The notes under the pieces are model-generated. The model searched no databases. It worked only from the letters and a program-made list of their open reading frames with translations, and was not told the origin of the DNA. Shown one piece after another: positions 1,902 through 27,828 of a stretch of DNA of 28,061 nucleotides (position 1 is its first letter; each line of letters begins with the position of its first letter). Source of the stretch: a virus (Duplodnaviria > Heunggongvirae > Uroviricota > Caudoviricetes); the IMG/VR virus record IMGVR_UViG_3300036956_000151; one strand, given 5' to 3'. Made by a program: the position numbers and the translations under genes.

Positions 1902-1978
1902 GGGCCGTTAGCTCAGTTGGTTAGAGCAGGCGACTCATAATCGCTTGGTCGCTGGTTCAAGTCCAGCACGGCCCACCA
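1902..1978 (+). tRNA. tRNA with CAU anticodon; anticodon and T arms match what I recall of enterobacterial ileX (tRNA-Ile2, lysidine type) better than elongator tRNA-Met; 77 nt including encoded CCA
   Basis: Acceptor stem GGGCCGT/ACGGCCC, D-arm TAGCTCAGTTGGTTAGAGCA, anticodon loop CTCATAA, T-arm GGTTCAAGTCC, 3' CCA; sits directly after rpoD as ileX does in E. coli. Confidence 0.9.
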
Positions 1979-2028
1979 TACGTATCAAGCACTTAGGCCA
2001 GCCTCACGAGGGCTGGCCTTTTGCTTTC
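1933..2028 (+). repeat. att direct repeat copy 1 (tRNA 3' half from anticodon loop plus terminator); part of the intact tRNA
   Basis: Near-identical to 12407-12502 and 27555-27660. Confidence 0.85.
1996..2027 (+). terminator. Rho-independent terminator of the tRNA (GGCCAGCC-N7-GGCTGGCC followed by TTTTGCTTT); repeated with the att copies at 12470-12501 and 27620-27651
   Basis: 8-bp GC stem plus T-run seen directly. Confidence 0.65.
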
Positions 2029-2036
2029 TGGGCCAA

Positions 2037-2055
2037 TGTAAGCACCTTGTAAGCG
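2037..2055 (+). promoter_or_regulatory. Two TGTAAGC heptamers (2037-2043, 2049-2055) at left end of element A; candidate integrase arm-type sites
   Basis: Same heptamer occurs three times at 12257-12287 at the opposite end, just upstream of the element A integrase start. Confidence 0.4.
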
Positions 2056-2530
2056 CCAGCAGAGGATGCGGGCCTGATGTCTGATGCGTACGTAACTTGT
2101 GTGCGTACCAGACTGCGTACTCGTGCATTGCACGGCCTCACATTGCGGTGCTGGCTATCGCCTTCCAAGCCCACGTTTAAAACGGAGCCTTCGACGGCGT
2201 GCTGAATACTCCGGTTTGAAATCGGAATATTCCCAGCTCCGGACAGCCCTGCGGCGACAGCCTCAAACCTTGACATCTTTGAACATCGGGCCTGACTCGC
2301 AGTAGAGGATGTCGCCGTTCCCGATACCCTGCAAAACCTACAAATCGTCGGCTTTGTGCAAGGGGCGCGAGGCATCCAACGCCATAAGGCACATATCGAA
2401 AGCTGCCTAGCAAGGGGGTGGCGTTTCGCCCACCCCTTTGATGCTCCCCGCAGGGTCGGGAAAACTACGCTATTTCCCGCAGTTTCAAGTTCGACCGTGG
2501 GCACCCTCGCCGGCCCCACCTCGCCCATCA

Positions 2531-2564
2531 ACCAAATTGGTAGATGGAGCAACCAATTTGGTTG
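2531..2564 (+). promoter_or_regulatory. Two adjacent palindromes ACCAAATTGGT and CAACCAATTTGGTTG; operator-like
   Basis: Perfect inverted repeats about 90-120 bp upstream of the Rha-like ORF. Confidence 0.35.
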
Positions 2565-2596
2565 CCACCAGCTTTACCGACCAGCACGGCGAAGGG

Positions 2597-2618
2597 GTGT
2601 CCTCAGTTTTGAGGATAC
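2597..2618 (+). promoter_or_regulatory. Palindrome GTGTCCTCA-GTTTT-GAGGATAC; operator-like, homologous to the site at 15443-15466 in element B
   Basis: Inverted repeat seen directly; 38 bp upstream of the ATG at 2657. Confidence 0.4.
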
Positions 2619-2656
2619 GTCGCCCCCGTCGCCAGCAGATACCCCATCAGCAAACC

Positions 2657-2803
2657 ATGAGCAGCCGCGAGATTGCGGAGCTAACGGGCAAGTGTCACGG
2701 CAACGTGAAGCGGACCATCGACACCTTGTCTGCCAAGGGAGTTATCCCTTTCCCTCATGCTGAGGAAAAGGCTACTGCGGGCCGTCCGCCGCTTGGCCTC
2801 TGA
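2657..2803 (+). CDS. Short ORF (48 aa) resembling only the N-terminal DNA-binding region of Rha/antirepressor-family phage proteins; possibly a truncated remnant
   Basis: MSSREIAELTGKCHGNVKRTIDTLSAKGVI matches the Rha-type N-terminal motif (SxEIAEL-GK-H-NV-R-I); no obvious SD. Confidence 0.4.
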   Translation: MSSREIAELTGKCHGNVKRTIDTLSAKGVIPFPHAEEKATAGRPPLGL

Positions 2804-3371: not shown

Positions 3372-3580
3372 GGTGGCTGCTCCTTGTGTGCGGTGATGTT
3401 CTCCGCAACCCCTTCCTACGGGGGCGGCGGAACCGTGCGGGGCTAGGAATACCGGACACAAGGAACCGGCCAGCCTCGCGGCTGCCCCACACGGCCCGCC
3501 ATTGAACAGGCGTCGCCATGCTTACCGACGTAAAAAAACCGCTTGCGCGGCCCTGTCGGCCTTGTGATTTCCGGGTTCCT
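3372..3580 (-). promoter_or_regulatory. Conserved ~200-bp structured non-coding leader (module 1), homologous to 15029-15235 in element B; possible promoter/5'-UTR or small RNA
   Basis: Alignable by eye with element B (shared GTTCTCCGC, GAACCGTGC, CCATGCTTACCGACGTAAAAAAACCGC-type blocks); conserved stems with compensatory changes; ends in SD plus ATG. Confidence 0.4.
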
Positions 3581-3760
3581 ACGCCCGCCCCTCTGTTTCG
3601 GGGGAAACTGAATCATGGGGCAGGCCGCTCGTTTCAGTCAATATAAAAATGATAATGAAATAGATTGGCTTGCCATAAATTTCGCTTGTACCATCGGCAT
3701 ACGACCACGGGCGTCTCGCAAGATGCAGACTGGCGCTCGCTCAAGACACAAGAGGCCCAC

Positions 3761-4735
3761 ATGAAGCGATTTGTTGTCATCCTCGGAGTATTGATGCTTG
3801 GCGGCTGCGCTACCGCCTATAAGCCTGAAGGTCACGGCGGAGGTTATACCGACGCTAGGTATGGCCCAAACCTCTTTGCAGTCACCGTGCGGGCCAACGG
3901 CTATACATCTTCTGACCGTGCAACAGAGCTGGCAATGCTACGAAGCGCGGAGCTTACATTGCAGAATGGATTCACCCATTTCGTCATCGCCGAGAGGGCT
4001 CAAGAGGCAAAGACCAGCACATTCAGCATGCCGACAACCACTTACACGACCGGAAATATCAACACGCAAGGAAATGCCGCTTACTTGAACGCCCAGACAA
4101 CAACTACAGGCGGGCAAACCTTCAATATTTCGAAGCCTCGCGTTTATTACAAAATAGAGTGTTACCGCAGTCAGCCCGACAGAGCCCTCGGGCTCGCTTA
4201 CGACGCCCGTGCAGTCTGCGAATCGCTTGGCAGCAAGTACGGCGTTGATTGCCAATCTCTCATCGCCACCAATCTCAAGCCTACCCATTCCAATGCCGGC
4301 GAAGTGCGTGCGGAGCTGTCCGCCGACCTGCCAGCCGGCTGGCAACGGCAAACTCTTTCTGACGAACTAGCGCAAAGAGGGGGAAGGCTGTTTGCCACTA
4401 ACAAGACCATAGACGCTGGGGCCTTGGTTTCGATGAGCAAACGGTCTGAAATTGTCGACACAGTCGTTTACGCCAAATCATTGAGAGCAAACCAAGCGAG
4501 CCTCATCGATAAAAGCGAGTGGTCTGAACTATCTGAAATCACCATAAACGGTCGTCGAGCATGGAAATTCTGGGTCACAGGCCTCTCAAAACGCGGCATG
4601 CAGGTTCAGTACCTAGGGACCGTTATTGAAGGCGAGTCACAGATGATTTACGTGAATACCTGGACTTCAAAGAAGAACTTTGACGATAACCGCACTGCTC
4701 TGGAGTCTCTCGCTGGCAGCTTTTCAGGCCTTTAG
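3761..4735 (+). CDS. Predicted lipoprotein, 324 aa, unknown function; low-GC cargo gene
   Basis: MKRFVVILGVLMLGGCATAYK (signal peptide with LGGC lipobox); AGAGG SD; GC visibly lower (~50%) than surroundings; Thr/Asn-rich linker segment. Confidence 0.8.
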   Translation: MKRFVVILGVLMLGGCATAYKPEGHGGGYTDARYGPNLFAVTVRANGYTSSDRATELAMLRSAELTLQNGFTHFVIAERAQEAKTSTFSMPTTTYTTGNINTQGNAAYLNAQTTTTGGQTFNISKPRVYYKIECYRSQPDRALGLAYDARAVCESLGSKYGVDCQSLIATNLKPTHSNAGEVRAELSADLPAGWQRQTLSDELAQRGGRLFATNKTIDAGALVSMSKRSEIVDTVVYAKSLRANQASLIDKSEWSELSEITINGRRAWKFWVTGLSKRGMQVQYLGTVIEGESQMIYVNTWTSKKNFDDNRTALESLAGSFSGL

Positions 4736-4768
4736 GCAGCGCAAGCGACGCCCGACCCCAAAGCGGCT

Positions 4769-4796
4769 ACGCGTGAAAGTGGCGTCTTTCACGCGT
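4769..4796. repeat. Palindromic hairpin repeat ACGCGTGAAAG-N6-CTTTCACGCGT; second copy at 5429-5456
   Basis: 11-bp perfect stems; two direct copies ~660 bp apart bracketing the repeat-rich block. Confidence 0.6.
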
Positions 4797-4907
4797 AACG
4801 ACGGGGCCAAGGGGAGGCCTCGTAGTCGGCTGGGTTGGCGATGAGCGGGGGAGAAGCAGGCTTGGTTTCCAGGGTCGGTTTCCAGCAGAACAGACCTTTT
4901 TCGCCTC

Positions 4908-5308: not shown

Positions 5309-5428
5309 CGCACCGAGCTGCGTACCACTGCCCTGCGTACCCGACTGCCGACGAAGGCCACGCCGCCAGCAGCGGCCACCAGTTCCAGAAAAGCGGCCTA
5401 CTCGCCAGCGTAGAGCTAGTAGCGGCCA

Positions 5429-5456
5429 CGCGTAAAAGTCGCGCCTTTCACGCGTG
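5429..5456. repeat. Second copy of the palindromic hairpin repeat (ACGCGTAAAAG-N6-CTTTCACGCGT)
   Basis: See 4769-4796. Confidence 0.6.
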
Positions 5457-5471
5457 ACGACGCGTGCGAGG

Positions 5472-5499
5472 GGAAGGAAGGAAGGAAGGAAGGAAGGAA
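5472..5499. repeat. (GGAA)7 tetranucleotide microsatellite
   Basis: Seven perfect GGAA units. Confidence 0.9.
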
Positions 5500-5771: not shown

Positions 5772-7745
5772 TTACTTGAGCCACAGCCAGCCCTCCCGAA
5801 GGACGATGCAGCCACGGTTCACAAGTCCGGTAATGGCAAGCTGCGCCCTGTAACGTTTCTGGTCCGGGTCACATGCAAGGCGGGCGCGGGTCTTGTCGAT
5901 AGCCTCTTCCAGTTCAACGCAGGGCCGGCCAGGAGGTCCGCCAGCTTCCCCGAAGTGCCGCGACTCTTTCAGCAGGTCGCGCAGTGCGTCGAGGATGATT
6001 CGCTGATTCCCGCCGGTCGGCAGCTTCACCCGCCCCACGGCATCGGCGGCGCGCTCTTCGGGAACGACGCAGCAGCTTGTGATTTCGTCGCCGTCCTCGT
6101 CGGCCCCGATTTCCACCACTTCCAGCCGAAACGGTTTTCCCAGGTCGTCATTGCCATCCTTGCTCTTCGCGGCCGTCCATTCCCGGCGGTCGTCGGTGCG
6201 GCTCACCTCGATGGCGGCATCAAGCGCAGCGTGAAGGCTGGAATGCCCCCGCAGGCCCTTGGACGCATCCTTGCCGGTGTGATGCACCAGCAGCACCAGC
6301 CCGCCAAGCTCCGCCTGTAGCGCCTTCGTCGCGGCGATGATTTCGCCCATTGCGGCGGAGTCGTTCTCGTCGGCACCCGGCGCGGCGCGGTTCAGCGTGT
6401 CGAGGGCCAACACGCCACCCGAGTAACCGGCAGCGCGGGCGGCGCTCACAAGGTCGGCGCGGTCGGCAGCTTTGCGGATGTCGAGCGGTTGCAGCAGGAA
6501 GCGGAATGCGCCGGCAAGTGGGCCGTGTTTCTCTTGGTGCGCCTGGACGCGTTGCGAGATGCCGGCCTCACCCTCAAGGGCAACATACAGCACTGGGGCG
6601 GCCTTCACGCGGCACCCGAACCACGGCCGGCCAGCGGCGACAGCGGCGAGCATGTCGAGCGCCAGGAAGGATTTGCCGGACCCGCTTGGGCCATACAACG
6701 CGGCAATCCCTTCCTCCGGGAGCACACCACGCACCCGCCAGCGGACAGGGGGCAGCGCGGCCAGTTCAGACGGTGCCAGCAGCCGGAAGCGTTGCGAGTG
6801 CTTCTTCGGATTGGCCAGCAGTGCGGCCAGGGCGTCGAGGCCGTCCCGCTGGTGCATGTCGTTGGCGTCAAAGTTGGCGGGCGAGCCTTCCGGCATTTCC
6901 ACCCATGCGGCGGCGGTGTCCTTGGCGATGCGGGCGCAATGCGACTCCTTGCCGGCATCGGCCACCAACACCCGGCGGGCCAGCGGGTAGCGGTCGGCCA
7001 GCGCCTTGGATGCGGCTTCCATCCGGCCGGCACCGAAGCAGACCGCGGCCGGCGCGTTCGCGGCCTGGTGGCAGCTCCACGCCTGCCCGACGCCCTCGCA
7101 CAGGTAGAGCGTGACGCCTGCGCCCTGGTGCGGGATGCGCCCCACCACGAACAGGCCGTCCATCGGCAGGCCGGGGGCGTTCAGTTTCTTGCCATCGGCC
7201 GGCGGGATGAATTGCGCGCTCTTCAGGGTGCCGTCAATCGCGTAGCACGGCACCACGAGATAGCCGGCCACCGCCTCGCGGGCGATGGTCAGCGGGCCGC
7301 CATAGACGCGCAGGCCGGCGGGTAGGCCATGCTTGCGGGCAATGTAGCCGTGTTCCGCCGTCGCTGGTGCGCAGGATGCCCACAGGGCGGCCACGTCGAG
7401 CGGCGGAGCCTTGGACGGGGCTTCGTGCATCCGGCGCTCGGTCGTGCGTTGTGGGCGGTTCTGGTAAGTCTGGCGCGGTGCGTCGTCGCTCCATCCAGCG
7501 GCGCGGGCCAGTGCGAAGAGCGTACCGGCCTGGATGCCGCCATCCTCGCGGATGCTCCGCCAGACGGCGCGTGCGTCGGCCTCGTTGCGATAGTTGCCGG
7601 CTCCGGCGCTCCAGTCATGGAAGTCCTCGAAGTCGAGGCCGGCAGCCTTTGCAGCCATGCCAGCCCGGACCCATTCGGCGCGTTCGGCACCGGGGTCGAG
7701 GGCGTGCAAGGCAAAGCGGGCGCGGTCAAACTCGCGGGCATCCAT
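5772..7745 (-). CDS. Primase-helicase-type replication protein, 657 aa (PriCT-like N-terminus, Toprim-like centre, RecA-type ATPase C-terminus); ORF-track N-terminal 71 aa rejected
   Basis: MDAREFDRARFALHALDP...GLDFEDFHDWSAG; CEGVGQAW and VLVADAGKE; Walker A YGPSGSGKSFLALD and VLLVHHTGKD; ATG overlaps upstream stop (ATGA). Confidence 0.85.
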   Translation of the reverse strand: MDAREFDRARFALHALDPGAERAEWVRAGMAAKAAGLDFEDFHDWSAGAGNYRNEADARAVWRSIREDGGIQAGTLFALARAAGWSDDAPRQTYQNRPQRTTERRMHEAPSKAPPLDVAALWASCAPATAEHGYIARKHGLPAGLRVYGGPLTIAREAVAGYLVVPCYAIDGTLKSAQFIPPADGKKLNAPGLPMDGLFVVGRIPHQGAGVTLYLCEGVGQAWSCHQAANAPAAVCFGAGRMEAASKALADRYPLARRVLVADAGKESHCARIAKDTAAAWVEMPEGSPANFDANDMHQRDGLDALAALLANPKKHSQRFRLLAPSELAALPPVRWRVRGVLPEEGIAALYGPSGSGKSFLALDMLAAVAAGRPWFGCRVKAAPVLYVALEGEAGISQRVQAHQEKHGPLAGAFRFLLQPLDIRKAADRADLVSAARAAGYSGGVLALDTLNRAAPGADENDSAAMGEIIAATKALQAELGGLVLLVHHTGKDASKGLRGHSSLHAALDAAIEVSRTDDRREWTAAKSKDGNDDLGKPFRLEVVEIGADEDGDEITSCCVVPEERAADAVGRVKLPTGGNQRIILDALRDLLKESRHFGEAGGPPGRPCVELEEAIDKTRARLACDPDQKRYRAQLAITGLVNRGCIVLREGWLWLK

Positions 7746-9456: not shown

Positions 9457-9477
9457 CGCGCTCCTTCAAGCGCCTTC

Positions 9478-9552
9478 AAAAGAGGCACCGCGCCAGGCGG
9501 GTGAAGGTTCCCGCTTTTCGGTTGGCCGACCTAGGCGCGGTGGTGGTACTCG
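9478..9552. terminator. Conserved nested-hairpin element (module 2): outer stem CACCGCGCC/GGCGCGGTG enclosing inner hairpin GCGGG-N8-CCCGC plus T4; terminator-like in both orientations; homologous copy at 25028-25104
   Basis: Near-identical flanks in both elements; inner stem differs by compensatory changes (GCGGG/CCCGC versus CGGGG/CCCCG). Confidence 0.45.
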
Positions 9553-10925: not shown

Positions 10926-12242
10926 TCAGGTCACAACCCGCAACCCAGGCGCCTGCCCCTCGTCCGGCTGCTCGATGCCGGCCTGCTCCAGAATCCAGCC
11001 CTCTATCTTGATGTGCCACAGGGTCAGCAGGTCGAGCGGCCGGCGGCGATAGTGCTTCTCGGCCAAGGCGCTGGGCTTGTGCCCCTGAATCTGCGCCACC
11101 ACGCCGACGGGCACCTCGCACCACTCCGCCAGGGTGCCGAAGGAGCGGCGCAGGTCATGCAGCGAGAATGGCGGCAGGCCGGCGGCTTCCATCGCTTTGC
11201 GCAGGGGTTTGAGGACTTCCACGATACGGCCATCCGCGGCCGCAGGGCTTGAGAACACCCACTCATTCCGGCGCGGCAGAGAGGCCAGCAGCGAGGCGAC
11301 GAAGGGCGTCAGCGGGATGATGCGGCCCTCTTCCTCCACCTTGTCGGCGATGTGCAGGGACTTCCATTGAAAATCCACGTCAGCCCATTTCAGGCCGGCC
11401 AGTTCCTCGCGCCTCGCGCCGGTCAGGAGCAAGGTTTGCAGGTAGGCGGCGTGCACCGGGTTCCCCAGCTTGCGGACATGCTCGAACCACAGCGGCAATT
11501 GTTCGCGGCGCAGGCTGTCGCCTTTGGTCTTCACCGCCTGCACTTGGTCCCGCACTTCGCTGGTGCGGCAGGCATCCGCACGAACGAGGCCGGCATACTC
11601 CGGGCGCTCGGCACACCAGCCAAGGAAGGCGCGCACGAGGCGGAATATCTTTGCGGCCTGCGTCGCCCCGCGGGCGTTGTTGTCCTGCATCCATGCCGTG
11701 ATGCGTGCCGGGGTCAGGTCCAATAGGCGCACATGCAGCAGCGGATGTACCATGCCGGGCAAAGTGTATTCCCCCTGCCCAGCCTTGCGCCCTCGCGTGA
11801 TGCGCTCGCCGCCGGGCTTTATGGCCTGTGCATGGTCGCGCTGTGAGGACTCGCCCCACTTGTGCGAGCGGGCCAGAACATAGGCGGCCCATGCCTCGCC
11901 AACGGTCACTTCCTGCCGTGCGGACTCTTCCCGCTTGGCCTCGATGGCGGCGCGCTTGTCGGCCTTCTCTTGGCGCGGGTCGATGCCTTGGTCAATCAGG
12001 GTTTGCAGGCGGCGGGCTTCGGCGCGGGCTGCGTCAATGCCCCACGCGCGCACGTCGCCAATCGTGATGCGAAGAGCCTTGCCGTTCAGGCGGCTTTGGA
12101 AGATGAACCCGCGCGCCTCGCTGCCGGGTGTGGCACGCACTGCGAGGCCGGGCGCTTCCGTGTCCCACAGGAAGGCTTGAGCGGTGCCGGTCGGGCATTC
12201 AAATTCGCGGATGCGGCCGGCGGTCAGCTTGTTGCGTGCCAT
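10926..12242 (-). CDS. int: Tyrosine recombinase, P4-type integrase (element A); ATG at 12242 preferred over the ORF-track start at 12248
   Basis: ~438 aa; catalytic-domain blocks LTGARREELAGL, HDLRRSFGT, HKPSALAEKHYRRR; GGAGAA SD; adjacent to att copy 2. Confidence 0.9.
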   Translation of the reverse strand: MARNKLTAGRIREFECPTGTAQAFLWDTEAPGLAVRATPGSEARGFIFQSRLNGKALRITIGDVRAWGIDAARAEARRLQTLIDQGIDPRQEKADKRAAIEAKREESARQEVTVGEAWAAYVLARSHKWGESSQRDHAQAIKPGGERITRGRKAGQGEYTLPGMVHPLLHVRLLDLTPARITAWMQDNNARGATQAAKIFRLVRAFLGWCAERPEYAGLVRADACRTSEVRDQVQAVKTKGDSLRREQLPLWFEHVRKLGNPVHAAYLQTLLLTGARREELAGLKWADVDFQWKSLHIADKVEEEGRIIPLTPFVASLLASLPRRNEWVFSSPAAADGRIVEVLKPLRKAMEAAGLPPFSLHDLRRSFGTLAEWCEVPVGVVAQIQGHKPSALAEKHYRRRPLDLLTLWHIKIEGWILEQAGIEQPDEGQAPGLRVVT

Positions 12243-12256
12243 GTTCAAGTTCTCCG

Positions 12257-12406: not shown

Positions 12407-12502
12407 ACTCATAATCGCTTGGTCGCTGGTTCAAGTCCAGCACGGCCCACCATACGTATCAAGCACTTAGGCCAGCCTCACGAGGGCTGGCCTTTTGCTT
12501 TC
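12407..12502 (+). repeat. att direct repeat copy 2 (junction between element A and element B); tRNA 3' half only, no 5' half
   Basis: ACTCATAATCGCTTGGTCGCTGGTTCAAGTCCAGCACGGCCCACCA plus terminator; preceded by unrelated AT-rich sequence. Confidence 0.85.
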
Positions 12503-12510
12503 CGGCGCCG

Positions 12511-12529
12511 TGTAGCCACCATGTAGCCA
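12511..12529. promoter_or_regulatory. Two TGTAGCCA octamers at left end of element B; candidate arm-type sites
   Basis: Same motif at 27389-27425 (three copies, one inverted) upstream of the element B integrase. Confidence 0.4.
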
Positions 12530-12582: not shown

Positions 12583-12691
12583 GGAGGGAGCTATCGGCCT
12601 CCCCTCCTCCGCCGTGAGTGCGTGATGGCTCCGTTTTGAGCCATCGTCAGCAACGGCCGAAAGTAAAGGGTGGGCAGATTGTGCCCACCCT
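12583..12691. other. Three consecutive GC-rich hairpins (12583-12607, 12624-12646, 12665-12691) between att copy 2 and the Rha-like fragment
   Basis: Inverted repeats GGAGGGAG/CTCCCCTCC, GATGGCTC/GAGCCATC, AAGGGTGGGCA/TGCCCACCCTT. Confidence 0.3.
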
Positions 12692-12698
12692 TGGCGGG

Positions 12699-12830
12699 TC
12701 AGCAGCTCATGGGCTTCTCCTCAATTTGAGGAGAAGCAATCACGCCGCGCTCAAGCAAGGTTTCGATGGTGCGCTTCACGTTGTCGTGACGCTTCGGCCT
12801 GGTGCCGGCATGGGCGACTGATGCGAACAT
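12699..12830 (-). pseudogene. Decayed Rha-like N-terminal fragment, 43 codons; lacks the usual N-terminal helix
   Basis: Translation ...RPKRHDNVKRTIETLLERGVIASPQIEEK matches the element A ORF at 2657-2803; below the 60-aa ORF-track cutoff. Confidence 0.35.
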
Positions 12831-12847
12831 TGCTCGGGTCAGAACGA

Positions 12848-12872
12848 AGGGTGTCGCTATTCCCGACACCCT
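12848..12872. promoter_or_regulatory. Palindrome AGGGTGTCG-N7-CGACACCCT just upstream of the Rha-like fragment
   Basis: Shares GGTGTC/GACACC half-sites with the palindromes at 2597-2618 and 15443-15466. Confidence 0.35.
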
Positions 12873-13071
12873 TTAAAACCTGGTGAACGTGGGGCCTCGT
12901 TCGCAGAACGACACGCCCGGCCGCCGAGGGCCTGCGTACTGTGCAGTCCCTCTCCGGGTCAGAACTTGGGCCTCGTTCGCAGAAACGGCACCTGATGCGA
13001 ATGAACTACTTCATAGCCCGCAAACCCCGCGTGCCCTAGGATGAAGGCTCCTTTTCTTTCCTGATAGATCT

Positions 13072-15028: not shown

Positions 15029-15235
15029 GGTGATGTTCCTTATTTGCGGTCTTGTTCTCCGCTACCCAGCCGCCAAGCTGGGTGAGCAGAACCGTGCAGG
15101 TTGGCGGACCGGAATAAGGACCGGCAGGGTTTCCCCTCCCGCACGGCCCCGCCCAATGAGGCGATACCATGCTACGGACGTAAAAAAACCGCGCAGTGCG
15201 GCGGTTGTCCGCCTTATTTACCCGGGCCGCCAAGC
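15029..15235 (-). promoter_or_regulatory. Conserved structured leader (module 1), element B copy
   Basis: Homologous to 3372-3580; includes hairpin CCGC-N5-GCGG followed by A7 (terminator-like on the minus strand). Confidence 0.4.
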
Positions 15236-15442
15236 CCGTATCACCGTTGTTTGCAGCGACGAAAATATGATGCGCCTGGGCGCCGCTGGTGGTCAAGCAC
15301 TTATTTTGCATGTGTGGCGCCGGAGGGGAGGTGGACACATGAATCATGGGCGCCCGAGGACGGACACGGTAGGTGTCATTTCGGCCGGCGACACCCGCCT
15401 AAAATGGGTGGCCGCGGTAAGTCGAGCACGTCAGGCCGCCGA

Positions 15443-15466
15443 GGTGTCCTCAGTTTTGAGGACACC
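15443..15466. promoter_or_regulatory. Perfect palindrome GGTGTCCTC-AGTTTT-GAGGACACC; operator-like
   Basis: Homologous to the site upstream of the element A Rha-like ORF, but no Rha-like ORF follows here. Confidence 0.4.
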
Positions 15467-15553
15467 GTCACCAATGTGCAAATCTGCACAATATCCAGAC
15501 CCACGCGGCTGCCCTGGATGAAGCCGTCTGCGTCGCTTCTGAGTTTCATCGGA

Positions 15554-18676: not shown

Positions 18677-19351
18677 ATGTCAGCGGGGACGAGGTGGGGA
18701 AGGGCTGGATTTCCCGAAGTCGCCATTCGTACCGATGCCGAGGGCCGCTACTGCCTGAATGATCTGCACAAGGCTGCTGGCGACCTGCCGAAGGATCAGC
18801 CGGCCAAATATTTCGCCAATCAACAAGCGAAAGACCTGATCTCCGAAATCGGAGATCACTCTGTTCATGTGGTCCGTGGCTATGGGAAGGAGCAAGGCAC
18901 CTACGTCTGCAAGGAACTGGTTTACGCCTACGCCATGTGGATCAGCCCAGCCTTCAGCCTGAAAGTGATTCGCGCCTACGATGCCATCGTGCGCGGCGAC
19001 TTCGGATCGGAATACCTCCCGGCCATCCTTCACGAAATTGACCAGCGCCTTTCGATCCGGCTGGTTGATCTTGAGGCCGCCATCGAAACCCGCATTCACG
19101 GCGAGCTCGCCAAGCAGCGCACCGGCATCCGCCACGGCGTCACCGCCGGCCAGGTATGGCACGAACACGGCTTCCCGGCTGATGCCGGAGGATTCGCCGG
19201 GGTCGTAGCTGTCGTTGGTCGCCACTACAAGGCCGTGACGATGGCTGGTGAAGCCCTGAAATCAGTTCAGGGCATGCGCTTTGGCTCGATTCGCAGCCCT
19301 TCGCGCACTGCGAAACCTACGGTGATGTACGGTGAATCTTGGGCATTCTGA
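18677..19351 (+). CDS. KilA-N domain protein, 224 aa
   Basis: RYCLNDLHKAAG...YFANQQAKDLISEI...GTYVCKELVYAYAMWISPAFSLKVIRAYDA matches the KilA-N signature; one of very few plus-strand island genes. Confidence 0.75.
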   Translation: MSAGTRWGRAGFPEVAIRTDAEGRYCLNDLHKAAGDLPKDQPAKYFANQQAKDLISEIGDHSVHVVRGYGKEQGTYVCKELVYAYAMWISPAFSLKVIRAYDAIVRGDFGSEYLPAILHEIDQRLSIRLVDLEAAIETRIHGELAKQRTGIRHGVTAGQVWHEHGFPADAGGFAGVVAVVGRHYKAVTMAGEALKSVQGMRFGSIRSPSRTAKPTVMYGESWAF

Positions 19352-24137: not shown

Positions 24138-24245
24138 TACCGGTACTTTTTGGGATCCTTACCGCCGATAAGGATCCCCAGCAGTGGCAAGGGTTTGGGG
24201 GGTGACCGCCGGTTTGCTTACCGGCGACTGCCGCCGGTAAGCGTT
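24138..24245. promoter_or_regulatory. Operator cluster: four CTTACCG motifs arranged as inverted repeats (GGGATCCTTA-N7-TAAGGATCCC at 24152-24178; CTTACCGGCG-N5-CGCCGGTAAG at 24217-24241)
   Basis: Upstream of the HTH gene that heads the replication operon. Confidence 0.4.
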
Positions 24246-25001: not shown

Positions 25002-25027
25002 TCTCGCGCTCCATCTGCGCACCCATC

Positions 25028-25104
25028 GAAAAAGGCACCGCGCCAGCGGGGCGATGGAATCCCCGTTTTCGGTTGGCCGACCTAGGCGCGGTGGTGGTGC
25101 TCGG
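25028..25104. terminator. Conserved nested-hairpin element (module 2), element B copy
   Basis: Outer stem CACCGCGCC/GGCGCGGTG, inner CGGGG-N9-CCCCG plus T4. Confidence 0.45.
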
Positions 25105-26040: not shown

Positions 26041-27369
26041 TTACTTGACGGCCCTGAGGACTGTCGCGGCCCCCTCTGTCGGCTGCTCGATGCCGGCCTG
26101 TTCCAGAATCCACGCCTCAATCTTGATGTGCCACATACGTAGCAGGTCGAGGGGCCGGCGGCGGTAGTGCTTTTCAGCCAGCGCAGACGGCTTGTGCCCT
26201 TGAATCTGCGCCACCACGCCCACCGGGCATTCCACCCATTCGGACAGGGTGCCGAAGGAGCGGCGCAAGTCATGCAGTGAGAACGGCGGCAGGCCGGCGG
26301 CTTCCATCGCGTTCTTGTGGGGCTTGAGCGGCTCCTGGAGGCGGCCAGATGCCGCGGAGGGGCTGGAGAACACCCACTCATTGCGGCGCGGCAGGGCTGC
26401 CAGCAAGGCCGCAACATAGGGCGTCAGCGGGATGATGCGCTGCCCTTCCACTTTGTCCCGGATGGTCAGGGACTTCCATTGAAAATCGATGCAATCCCAC
26501 GTCAGGCCGGCGAGCTCTTCGCGGCGGGCTCCGGTAAGCAGCAGGGTTTGCAGGTAGGCCACGTGCACCGGATTGCCCAGCTTCCTGACGTGCTCGAACC
26601 ACAGCGGCAACTGCTCCCGCTGCAGGCTGTCGCCCTTGGCTCTGGCCGCCTGCACCTGGTCCCGCACTTCGCTGGTACGGCAGGCGTCGGCCCGGACAAG
26701 GCCGGCATACTCGGGCCGCTCGGCACACCAGCCAAGGAAGGCCCGCACCAAGCGGAAGTTCTTCGCTGCTTCGGTGGCCCCCCGGACGTTGTTCGCCTGC
26801 ATCCAGGCCGTTATGCACGCCGGCGTCAGGTCGATCAGGCAGACCGCCAGCAGCGGATGAACCATGCCCTGCAATGAGAACTCGCCCTGCCCCTTCTTGC
26901 GGCCTCGCGTGATGCGCTCGCCACCGGGCTTGATGGCCTTCTCGTGGTCCCGCTTGGACGATTCGCCCCACTTGTGGGAGCGGGCGGCAACGTAGGCGGC
27001 CCACGCCTCGCCAACGGTCACGGACTGGCGGCGCTGCTCTTCCTGCCCTGCCACCACTGCGGCCTTCTTGGCCTCCACTGCGGCCAGCTTGTCGGCTTTC
27101 TCCTGCCGGGGATCGGTGCCCTGGTCGACAACGGTTTGCAACCGGCGAGCTTCGGCGCGGGCATCGTCCAGGTTCCACGCCCGCACGTCGCCGATGGTTA
27201 CGCGGATTGTTTGCCGGTTTAGCTTGGCCTCGAAGATGAACGACTTCGCGCCCGTGGTCGCACGCACAGCGAGGCGCGGCGCGTCGGTGTCCCAGAGGAA
27301 GGATTGCTTGGCGTCGGCGGGGCAGGAGAAGCGGCGGATTCGGTCGGGCGTGAGGCGTTCGCGTTGCAT
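26041..27369 (-). CDS. int: Tyrosine recombinase, P4-type integrase (element B), 442 aa
   Basis: Collinear with the element A integrase with long identical stretches (HDLRRSFGT, VGVVAQIQGHKPSALAEKHYRRRPLDLL); GGAG SD; adjacent to att copy 3. Confidence 0.9.
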   Translation of the reverse strand: MQRERLTPDRIRRFSCPADAKQSFLWDTDAPRLAVRATTGAKSFIFEAKLNRQTIRVTIGDVRAWNLDDARAEARRLQTVVDQGTDPRQEKADKLAAVEAKKAAVVAGQEEQRRQSVTVGEAWAAYVAARSHKWGESSKRDHEKAIKPGGERITRGRKKGQGEFSLQGMVHPLLAVCLIDLTPACITAWMQANNVRGATEAAKNFRLVRAFLGWCAERPEYAGLVRADACRTSEVRDQVQAARAKGDSLQREQLPLWFEHVRKLGNPVHVAYLQTLLLTGARREELAGLTWDCIDFQWKSLTIRDKVEGQRIIPLTPYVAALLAALPRRNEWVFSSPSAASGRLQEPLKPHKNAMEAAGLPPFSLHDLRRSFGTLSEWVECPVGVVAQIQGHKPSALAEKHYRRRPLDLLRMWHIKIEAWILEQAGIEQPTEGAATVLRAVK

Positions 27370-27554: not shown

Positions 27555-27660
27555 CGACTCATAATCGCTTGGTCGCTGGTTCAAGTCCAGCACGGCCCAC
27601 CAATAGCATCAAGCACTTAGGCCAGCCTCACGAGGGCTGGCCTTTTGCTTTCCGGCGCCG
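27555..27660 (+). repeat. att direct repeat copy 3 (right end of element B); tRNA 3' half plus terminator, a few substitutions after CCA
   Basis: Same 46-nt tRNA 3' segment and terminator; shares the tail CGGCGCCG with copy 2. Confidence 0.85.
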
Positions 27661-27828
27661 GCATCCGGGAATGACAATAAAATTCTGCAGCGCAACCTGA
27701 ACCATCCAGAACGGCTGCAAAAAGTATGATGCAGCGCCGCAATCCATCACCTATAAAGGAGCATGTACCCGGGTTCGGCGCACTTCGCCCGGCCCCATTC
27801 TCACGACGCTGACATCCCGGAGAATTTC

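Follow-up and report, generated by a model that had tools for sequence, protein, structure and literature searches.

The 28,061-nucleotide (nt) stretch IMGVR_UViG_3300036956_000151, a virus record of the Caudoviricetes that is referred to here as the window, holds two tandem islands, A (~10.5 kb) and B (~15.1 kb), and near the left end of each of them lies a short open reading frame (ORF) resembling the N-terminus of the Rha/Roi-type phage proteins. An earlier note on this DNA had drawn attention to these ORFs, one of 48 codons in island A (2657-2803) and a 43-codon fragment in island B (12699-12830), and to palindromes with GGTGTC/GACACC half-sites beside them; all of these features were found in place, far above chance. 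The 24-nt palindrome at 2596-2619 reads GGTGTCCTCAGTTTTGAGGATACG and has 2 mismatches to a perfect copy at 15443-15466 (2 found in the window vs 0 expected by chance), and the arrangement GGTGTC-N(2-14)-GACACC occurs three times (12850-12870, 15372-15395 and 15443-15466) against 0.03 expected, including a GGTGTC-N12-GACACC site at 15372-15395 that had been overlooked. The bare GGTGTC/GACACC hexamers are frequent (25 in the window, many at positions inside long minus-strand ORFs), so that only the paired arrangement is significant.

Both ORFs proved to be N-terminal Rha-type fragments that end just after the helix-turn-helix region, as had been proposed. Translation of the ORF at 2657-2803 (+) gives MSSREIAELTGKCHGNVKRTIDTLSAKGVIPFPHAEEKATAGRPPLGL followed by the stop codon, and corresponds to residues 1-48 of Rha/Roi proteins of ~220 amino acids (aa). 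Comparison with the Pfam profile Phage_pRha (PF09669) resulted in 24.6 bits, below the cut-off of 29.9, and covered profile positions 1-25 of 91, and the 59-position profile phrog_15709 matched positions 12-48 with E=4e-11. In a tblastn search against phages, 534 records were retrieved, and residues 1-44 of the stub aligned to N-termini annotated as Rha, Roi or Ant; the closest relative is a 218-aa phage protein (locus L062) with 74% identity over residues 1-46. A word-indexed protein search with the 48-aa query returned 3 matches, and an exhaustive protein search gave the island relatives described below. The same query was used to fetch 60 genome loci and 80 viral loci, in all but a few of which a reading frame with the same start extends over ~180-310 codons; ~90 relatives from genomes and viral contigs were compared for length. 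When the window was aligned to full-length Rha proteins by tblastn, as the earlier note had advised, only residues 1-48 (A) and 12-39 (B) matched; no C-terminal rha piece was detectable in the window with full-length protein queries, and the full-length Rha architecture (~200-250 aa, with a ..KRDSYVVVAQLSPEFTARLVDRWQELE.. segment and a C-terminal domain) was not found in the stubs. The A stub keeps the first helix but reads KCHGNV for the conserved KRHDNV (R to C, D to G). No Shine-Dalgarno (SD) sequence precedes the ATG of the A or the B stub; among 130 rha genes, none (0/130) has an SD before the Met equivalent to that of the stub, and 73/130 have an SD-preceded start at most 25 codons upstream. 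The A stub is probably a pseudogene. A palindrome, CCTTTCCCTCA-tgc-TGAGGAAAAGG (2747-2771 (+); 10/11 pairs), occupies nt 91-115 of this ORF, as is usual in the rha family.

Within the first 44-48 residues of Rha/Roi family proteins such as phi80 Rha, P22 ORF201 and HK022 Roi (PF09669), the stubs show 58-74% identity, and each has part of the SREIAELTGK-RHDNV helix-turn-helix signature, the first helix with KCHGNV in A and KRHDNV without the first helix in B. Unlike those proteins of ~220 codons, they have 43-48 codons and neither wing nor C-terminal domain, and a ribosome-binding site is missing too. In hosts that are deficient in integration host factor, Rha has an inhibitory effect on phage growth (PMC4936722). 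No solved Rha structure was found by sequence, and a single-sequence AlphaFold model was too poor for use (predicted local distance difference test score, 60). The best profile match of both stubs, phrog_15709, is a PHROG of unassigned function, which may itself collect stubs, since the short homologues that could be inspected look like truncations with unrelated tails.

In island B, a minus-strand frame at 12699-12869 holds MFASVAHAGTRPKRHDNVKRTIETLLERGVIASPQIEEKPMSC and a stop codon, read from an ATG at 12830. This B stub (12699-12830 (-)) matches residues 12-39 only and represents a decayed copy of the truncated ancestor of the A stub; it has no Pfam match, and phrog_15709 matched it with E=8e-7 over profile positions 24-48. 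KRHDNV is kept and the first helix (SSREIAELTG) is lost. At the DNA level it is 80-83.5% identical to rha genes of Cronobacter, Klebsiella and APSE phages, and its intragenic palindrome, GCTTCTCCTCAA-A-TTGAGGAGAAGC at 12713-12737, has perfect 12-base-pair (bp) arms although the B ORF is decayed. Two further hairpins follow on the left: hairpin 3, AAGGGTGGGCA-caatc-TGCCCACCCTT and then TTTACTTT (12666-12692 (-)), which is likely, by its sequence, to be the intrinsic terminator of a minus-strand operon, and hairpin 4, GATGGCTC-aaaac-GGAGCCATC (12624-12645). Their counterparts in island A are hairpin 3, GGGTGGCGTTTTTAAAACGCCCCCC, at 2804-2828 and hairpin 4, ATGGCTCAG-ttc-TGAGCTAT, at 2862-2881, the latter being kept with different loops in B and in the related island L152. 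The A hairpin at 2804-2828 shares 15 nt, GGCGTTTTTAAAACG, with the in-gene palindrome of the stub of another related island (L145), and is possibly a relic of the palindrome of a third rha subtype. As a separate observation, the related island L143 is homologous at its left end (L143 1-520) but has no counterpart of the B stub together with palindrome P2 (12703-12922; see below), and in the window this segment is bracketed by GGGTCAG(A/C)A repeats next to hairpins, which suggests an insertion or a duplication by recombination at these repeats.

The earlier note had also taken the perfect palindrome at 15443-15466, after which it saw no ORF, as the mark of a deleted or relocated module. This was borne out, as the palindrome (hairpin P3) sits inside a third, heavily decayed rha remnant at 15383-15514 (+), GRRH..GVLSFEDTVTNVQ..RLP, which is 39% identical over 46 aa to residues 11-56 of the rha gene at locus L031 and shows a 34-nt similarity to the region of hairpin P1 in island A. 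The additional GGTGTC-N12-GACACC at 15372-15395 overlaps the GRRH codons of the same remnant, has no inner complementarity and is probably coincidental.

The possibility that A and B are two independently truncated antirepressors did not hold. The two stubs, which have opposite orientations relative to attL, are related as an inverted pair by 81 nt of DNA homology at 74% (2690-2770 vs 12714-12794), and the alignment runs through the stop codon into two further hairpins. Since the 3' flank and the hairpins past the stop are shared, the two stubs descend from one already-truncated ancestor. In comparison with A, the B copy lacks 14+2 nt of the first-helix codons and has, through a deletion of 10 nt, a shifted frame with a stop of its own. 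Hairpins 3 and 4 still pair in both islands despite differing stem and loop sequences.

The presence of GGTGTC-N12-GACACC inside the rha coding sequence of 25 of the fetched loci, where it encodes ..KGVVSSNDT.., prompted a systematic palindrome survey of rha genes. In a first set of 76 non-redundant rha genes, a palindrome with at least 9 paired arm positions was searched for in the first 180 nt; it was present in 54% of the genes, as compared with 4.6% of synonymous-codon shuffles and 5.5% of other 180-nt windows of the same genes, and 49/52 palindrome centres fell at nt 90-119. A second, independent set of 56 non-redundant genes, collected through the motif KRHD[NH]VxRD and not starting with MSSREIAE, gave a palindrome in 55% of the genes vs 7% of synonymous shuffles, at the same position. 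The arms differ by rha subtype (CTTTTCCTCAA/TTGAGGAAAAG, GGGTGTCGTTT/AAACGACACCC, AGATGCGTCCA/TGGACGCATCT and AATCTCCCCAA/TTGGGGAGATT), and within the CYC..GRG core the two facing positions covary (T-A 28, C-G 13, T.G 2, C.A 1), ~25 Watson-Crick pairs being expected if they were independent. At the protein level, Leu goes with Glu and Pro with Gly. A family-typical palindrome, with at least 8-9 pairs and located ~90-110 nt after the codon equivalent to MSSREIAE, is carried by both the A and the B stub. A general nucleotide constraint on the 5' end of rha was rejected as an explanation, since synonymous-codon identity was 0.402 in columns 0-45 and 0.403 in the rest; with no general synonymous constraint on codons 1-27, the constraint is specifically on pairing, and the 80-83% identity of the B stub to phage DNA reflects protein conservation plus the palindrome. 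No second copy of the palindrome was found within +/-10 kb in 130 phage loci, Rfam returned nothing at the hairpins at either gathering or E-value thresholds (window and 17 phage loci), and a limited keyword search found no description of the hairpin in the literature.

The palindromes of the window can be traced to this intragenic element. Hairpin P1, GGTGTCCTCA-GTTT-TGAGGATACG at 2596-2619 (+), lies upstream of the A stub and is what remains of codons ~27-38 of a second subtype of rha. Its codons read ..HGEEGV[LP]SF[EG]DT, and in relatives its sequence continues as rha coding sequence (P0134 of L143, ..THANEQNGQTYPIYRLPRRETLILVSGYSVQMRAR and ..GVPSFGDTHANEQNGQTYPIYRLPRRETLILVSGYSVQMRAR). P1 and P3 both encode GVLSFEDT and are identical at 21/24 positions to the in-gene palindrome of L031-type rha genes. 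Palindrome P2, AAGGGTGTCG-N7-CGACACCCTT at 12847-12873, is located 20 nt upstream of the B stub ATG, and its arms are the same as those of the palindrome GGGTGTCG..CGACACCC within the genes of a Pseudomonas-phage rha subtype; its origin is uncertain, as its flanks also resemble the terminator-like hairpin at 12666-12692. Each palindrome thus matches the intragenic palindrome of a different rha subtype, so that the sharing of half-sites, read earlier as a sign of a common operator, is better attributed, from these matches, to descent from rha coding sequence. A T-run is absent on either strand at P1, P3 and the stub palindromes, and only 12666-12692 has one (TTTACTTT).

Variation within the islands is informative on the nature of the constraint. 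The window is 98% identical to the related island L144, from which three substitutions and one indel separate it between 2034 and 3144; the paired positions 2603/2612 of P1, changed from T-A to C-G, account for two of the three substitutions in this 1.1 kb. In 8 distinct island sequences the 9 pairs of P1 are 100% paired and, read on the + strand, include a compensatory pair, a change of A-U to G.U and a G.U that is invariant. Such compensatory variation points to base pairing rather than to recognition of half-sites by a protein, and the G.U pattern in P1, as far as it can be read from these few changes, favours a sense RNA. At the level of sequence, covariation across the family and compensatory change within the islands show that the pairing of the rha intragenic element is maintained. 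As a separate observation, only one viral contig (L061) has an exact hairpin of the P1/P3 type, in two copies (4527-4549 and 6350-6373); both are located where convergent genes meet, and the two-gene insert between them is downstream of a 220-aa ORF that is possibly tail-assembly related.

About 12 related island loci were obtained through the exhaustive protein search, a follow-up search and contig retrieval, and all of them share window positions 2051-2691, comprising the leader and the first 12 codons of the stub, at 80-94% identity. After codon 12 the rha subtypes diverge: KRHDNVKRTI in A, L144, L153 and L152, STHDNVLKT in L145, and KRHADVMRDIR in L146-151. The rha part breaks off at codons ~40 to ~60, and the tails behind it result from the frame running on into non-coding DNA. 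In L143 the slot is taken by a full-length KilA-N gene, behind which two rha fragments form a chimera (P0134) that has lost the first helix. Altogether, codons 28-39 are included in every one of ~10 independent island rha fragments, and no fragment derives from codons 80-220. A full-length rha gene at this position, which the earlier note had named as the observation that would speak against its proposals, was found in 0 of the ~12 related loci, which leaves them standing on that point though the ORFs are unlike a maintained protein. The ratio of nonsynonymous to synonymous differences (pN/pS) was 0.6-1.3 among the island copies vs ~0.2 between phage genes (small counts).

The related islands also reveal a conserved element in front of the stub. 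A non-coding leader core at 2470-2640 (+), containing the twin palindromes and P1, is near-invariant, with almost every column invariant in an 11-locus alignment and flanks that are 80-90% identical. The twin near-palindromes, CAACCAAWTTGGTTG, are located at 2529 and 2550 (2529-2564), 21 bp apart, are operator-like, and show one variable position (T/C) across all related islands; these copies account for the start of the segment singled out in the earlier note. The core of ~170 nt lies between a terminator-like hairpin (2411-2440) and the stub ATG, and the 401-nt stretch 2440-2840, with core, stub and hairpins, folds with z=-3.6. Neither a significant similarity in the phage collection nor an Rfam match was found for the core, and its interpretation as a cos site or a phage-derived region was rejected for want of similarity in that collection; it may serve as promoter-operator, leader RNA or packaging site. 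A 12-nt resemblance of the core to what we take to be the P2 cos sequence is probably due to chance.

Some further observations concern KilA-N genes and short homologues. Island B has an intact KilA-N domain gene at 18677-19351 (+), to which the 5' end of the L143 KilA-N gene (884-1432) is 83.6% identical over 61 nt; the slot of the latter, directly after the conserved leader, is the place of the rha stub in island A, and KilA-N fragments are fused to rha fragments in L145 (P0155). Many unrelated short Rha-N cluster representatives from public data (P0014, P0028, P0036, P0074, P0132 and others) end 0-25 nt past the palindrome and continue with unrelated residues; judged from these sequences, truncation just past the hairpin appears to be recurrent well beyond this island family.

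Altogether, the alignments show near the attL end of the two tandem P4-like islands what reads as a patchwork of several rha 5' fragments. We consider it reasonably probable (about 0.6) that the ORFs are inherited rha/roi 5' stubs and that what persists in the islands is the hairpin and not the protein. The stubs would be pseudogene fragments generated by recombination between phage rha genes and an antirepressor slot of the satellites, placed downstream of the near-invariant leader, and the fragments that survive would almost always include the hairpin. The hairpin might act as a nucleic-acid structure rather than as a protein half-site, most plausibly in the sense-strand RNA, where it could be a cis element limiting or shaping the expression of a toxic regulator through attenuation, processing or stability. 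In the satellites, the hairpins could serve as transcript-end or insulator elements, and possibly as decoys, having been either co-opted or simply retained.

Several observations weigh against this interpretation. Spacers of 0-1 nt occur in 43/72 palindromes and A.C mismatches outnumber G.T in set 1, features to which a palindrome in DNA or an antisense transcript is no less suited than a hairpin in the sense RNA; the mismatch classes of that set (G.T 19, A.C 37, other 54) gave no clear sense-RNA signature. Detection of fragments is biased to the N-terminal region, though full-length queries gave no C-terminal pieces, and L152 has lost the stub palindrome. P2 may be an ordinary terminator-like hairpin rather than an rha relic. 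It has to be noted as well that the pN/pS values rest on only 5-12 substitutions, that 6/8 island stubs keep an intact 42-codon N-terminal frame, that phrog_15709, with its 59 positions, is a short profile matching both stubs, and that a stub may, to judge by its frame, encode a short DNA-binding peptide.

A more far-reaching version, which we regard as doubtful, is that the hairpin is an unrecognised family-wide cis-regulatory element that P4-like satellites domesticated as arrays behind a near-invariant leader, the copies being decoys or sensors, as RNA or as DNA, by which a factor acting on the rha hairpin of the helper would be titrated or reported. If so, a satellite could read or manipulate the lysis-lysogeny switch of its helper, and hairpin subtypes may match the rha genes of helper phages. 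That the locus is purely neutral debris, in which recombination left scars and the hairpins come along with that part of rha or double as terminators, seems unlikely to us. Debris would agree with the patchwork of Rha and KilA-N fragments with variable junctions, the hairpin lost in L152, the T-run behind hairpin 3 of island B, as in a normal terminator, and the absence of 12703-12922 from L143; it does not explain the compensatory double substitution in P1 within an almost identical 1.1 kb, the pairing kept by hairpins 3 and 4 of A and B with different stems and loops, the span of codons 28-39 common to ~10 independent fragments with none from 80-220, or the near-invariance of the adjacent leader.

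The small regulator family that the earlier note had put forward has little in its favour at the protein level: the first helix is lost in B and P0134, KRHDNV is mutated in A, the stub covers 25/91 positions of the Rha profile, an SD is missing and the natural rha start lies upstream of this Met (0/130 vs 73/130), the C-termini differ in every related island and are random read-through of non-coding DNA (P0005, P0006, P0153), and pN/pS is ~1 (0.6-1.3). We therefore find it rather unlikely that the stubs encode functional 42-48-aa Rha helix-turn-helix mini-regulators, e.g. subtype-matched proteins dominant-negative versus the helper Rha, even if A, L144, L153, L152, L145 and L146-151 have 42 intact N-terminal codons, an identical 107-aa ORF is present on 12 contigs, phrog_15709 represents a short family matching both stubs, many short Rha-N cluster representatives end just after the same point, and stub subtypes vary between islands, as helper matching would predict. 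On their own, both ORFs represent an ordinary case of decayed genes within mobile elements, and an annotation as regulators is not warranted.

We also hold it improbable that the GGTGTC..GACACC sites are operators for one dimeric protein, a helper Rha or an island repressor, coordinating the left-end module with the C4 promoter region. Three exact GGTGTC-N-GACACC sites in non-coding DNA of island B (vs 0.03 expected), the N12 spacing common to the in-gene palindrome of the Pseudomonas-phage rha subtype, the location of two sites ~80-150 bp upstream of a promoter-like site of the isrK/C4 unit and the short central spacers, typical of DNA palindromes, would suit such operators. Yet the inner arms are wholly different between sites, the site at 15372 is without inner symmetry and overlaps decayed 'GRRH' codons, the right half-site of the A copy is degenerate and conserved as a G.U pair in all relatives, both arms vary together, which restores pairing but not protein contacts, and the palindrome is single-copy in phages; a shared operator was rejected on the lack of further palindrome copies at phage loci, and the compensatory variation also speaks against it. 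Finally, a recombination site or hotspot (hairpin or cruciform template switching, or a nuclease or recombinase target) is very improbable as the cause of the clustered junctions: in its favour, the 3' edge of P1 is the exact end of the type-2 fragment in the leader, the break in many truncated homologues falls 0-25 nt past the palindrome, and A and B have their modules in inverse orientation, but several junctions lie away from palindromes (e.g. P0134 at R|TVDTL), no dedicated recombinase is associated with the site, and the pairing conserved in intact phage genes under purifying selection would be left unexplained.

For the rha hairpin read as a maintained nucleic-acid structure, a parallel can be drawn with integron attC-type sites, for which structure and not sequence is what is recognised, and with conserved structured elements in coding sequence; in the rha hairpin, too, pairing is conserved while sequence varies. 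Like structured coding elements, the rha hairpin has a fixed position in the gene, and the island arrays are spaced 45-150 nt; unlike in integrons, there is no integron integrase, and neither an Rfam match nor a terminator U-tract accompanies it, so that the likeness is by analogy only. Hundreds of phage records (534 within the searched collection) contain genes of the rha/Roi type, and a covarying hairpin at a fixed place was found in two samples of them, with a pairing constraint strong enough to couple amino-acid choices. If the hairpin controls these often toxic regulators, it would constitute a new control point in lysis-lysogeny circuitry, and its retention in satellites would be a new way of interacting with helpers. 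In addition, it provides a practical marker for decayed rha fragments and recombination junctions in mobile elements.

Each island also carries an antirepressor-control type of RNA module. In island A, a C4 antisense RNA at 3420-3506 (-) (Rfam 67.5 bits; gathering score 45) has directly upstream an isrK-like element at 3532-3604 (-) (43.8 bits, below the gathering score of 50), and in island B the same order is seen with C4 at 15078-15160 (-) (48.1 bits; gathering score 45) and the isrK-like element at 15182-15260 (-) (44.6 bits, below 50), the E-values of the isrK-like elements being ~1e-6. The C4 units of both islands are followed by small ORFs without family match. This isrK-like-then-C4 layout is also that of the P1 phage immI region (c4-icd-ant) and of Gifsy-1 (isrK-orf45-anrP), and the rha stub of island B is found 2.2 kb further downstream in the same orientation, a placement like that of ant or anrP in those modules (PMC4825925). 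Unlike in P1 immI and Gifsy-1, the "antirepressor" is here only a stub, which is several ORFs away in B and convergent with the module (3420-3604 (-)) in A; no intact antirepressor gene is coupled downstream of the C4 RNA in either island, only stubs. Structured RNAs were also observed in viral contigs just upstream of intact rha genes, namely an int-alpA RNA (L162, 1354-1424) and an sRNA-Xcc1 (L180, 1280-1366). In L172, an sRNA-Xcc1 match at 2099-2182 follows the beginning of the rha match at a distance of ~600 nt. These cases hint at a frequent association of rha genes with structured RNAs.

The window has a G+C content of 62% and begins with rpoD (15-1892), which has all sigma-70 regions, followed by tRNA-Met (1902-1978). 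A 119-nt direct repeat made of the 3' half of this tRNA and its terminator is present in three copies with 82-100% identity, the attL-type copy at 1933-2051 (+) and further ones at 12407-12525 and 27557-27675, and these delimit the two islands. Each island ends with an integrase with an Arm DNA-binding domain (A, 10926-12248 (-); B, 26041-27369 (-)) and contains, besides the C4 antisense RNA, one int-alpA RNA identified with Rfam (9473-9541 (-) and 25023-25092 (-)). Island A encodes a PriCT-2/AAA_25 primase, and island B a primase/helicase-like gene, a replication-initiator gene, a PmgG-like gene, the KilA-N gene and a toxin-antitoxin pair. Judged by this content, with a tRNA-site integrase, int-alpA RNA, primase, small size and att repeats, A and B are P4-like satellite-type islands. 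No helper phage and no cos site were identified within the window. The metagenomic contig L146 has the same island type at the same dnaG-rpoD-tRNA chromosomal site. From Pseudomonas, a helper phage and its satellite are on record (PMC4936722) that have a comparable gene set, with a Rha protein of 165 aa; the P4-like satellite PhiAH14b of this pair resembles the present islands in size (10-15 kb), P4-type integrase, AlpA-like gene and primase, and differs from them in the possession of that Rha-family protein, rha being here reduced to fragments near attL.

Other palindromes of the islands lie away from the rha remnants. In island A, two 83%-identical 54-nt units with a long palindrome, ACGCGTGAAAG..CTTTCACGCGT, at 4762-4815 and 5421-5474 bracket ~600 nt of its low-G+C part and are adjoined by a 356-aa ORF without family match (3665-4735). 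In island B, perfect 12-bp-arm palindromes at 24152-24178 (GGGATCCTTACC-g-..) and 24216-24242 (GCTTACCGGCG-a-..), 64 nt apart, sit between the replication-initiator gene and a 357-aa ORF, and the region of this pair (24152-24242) may be a candidate origin.

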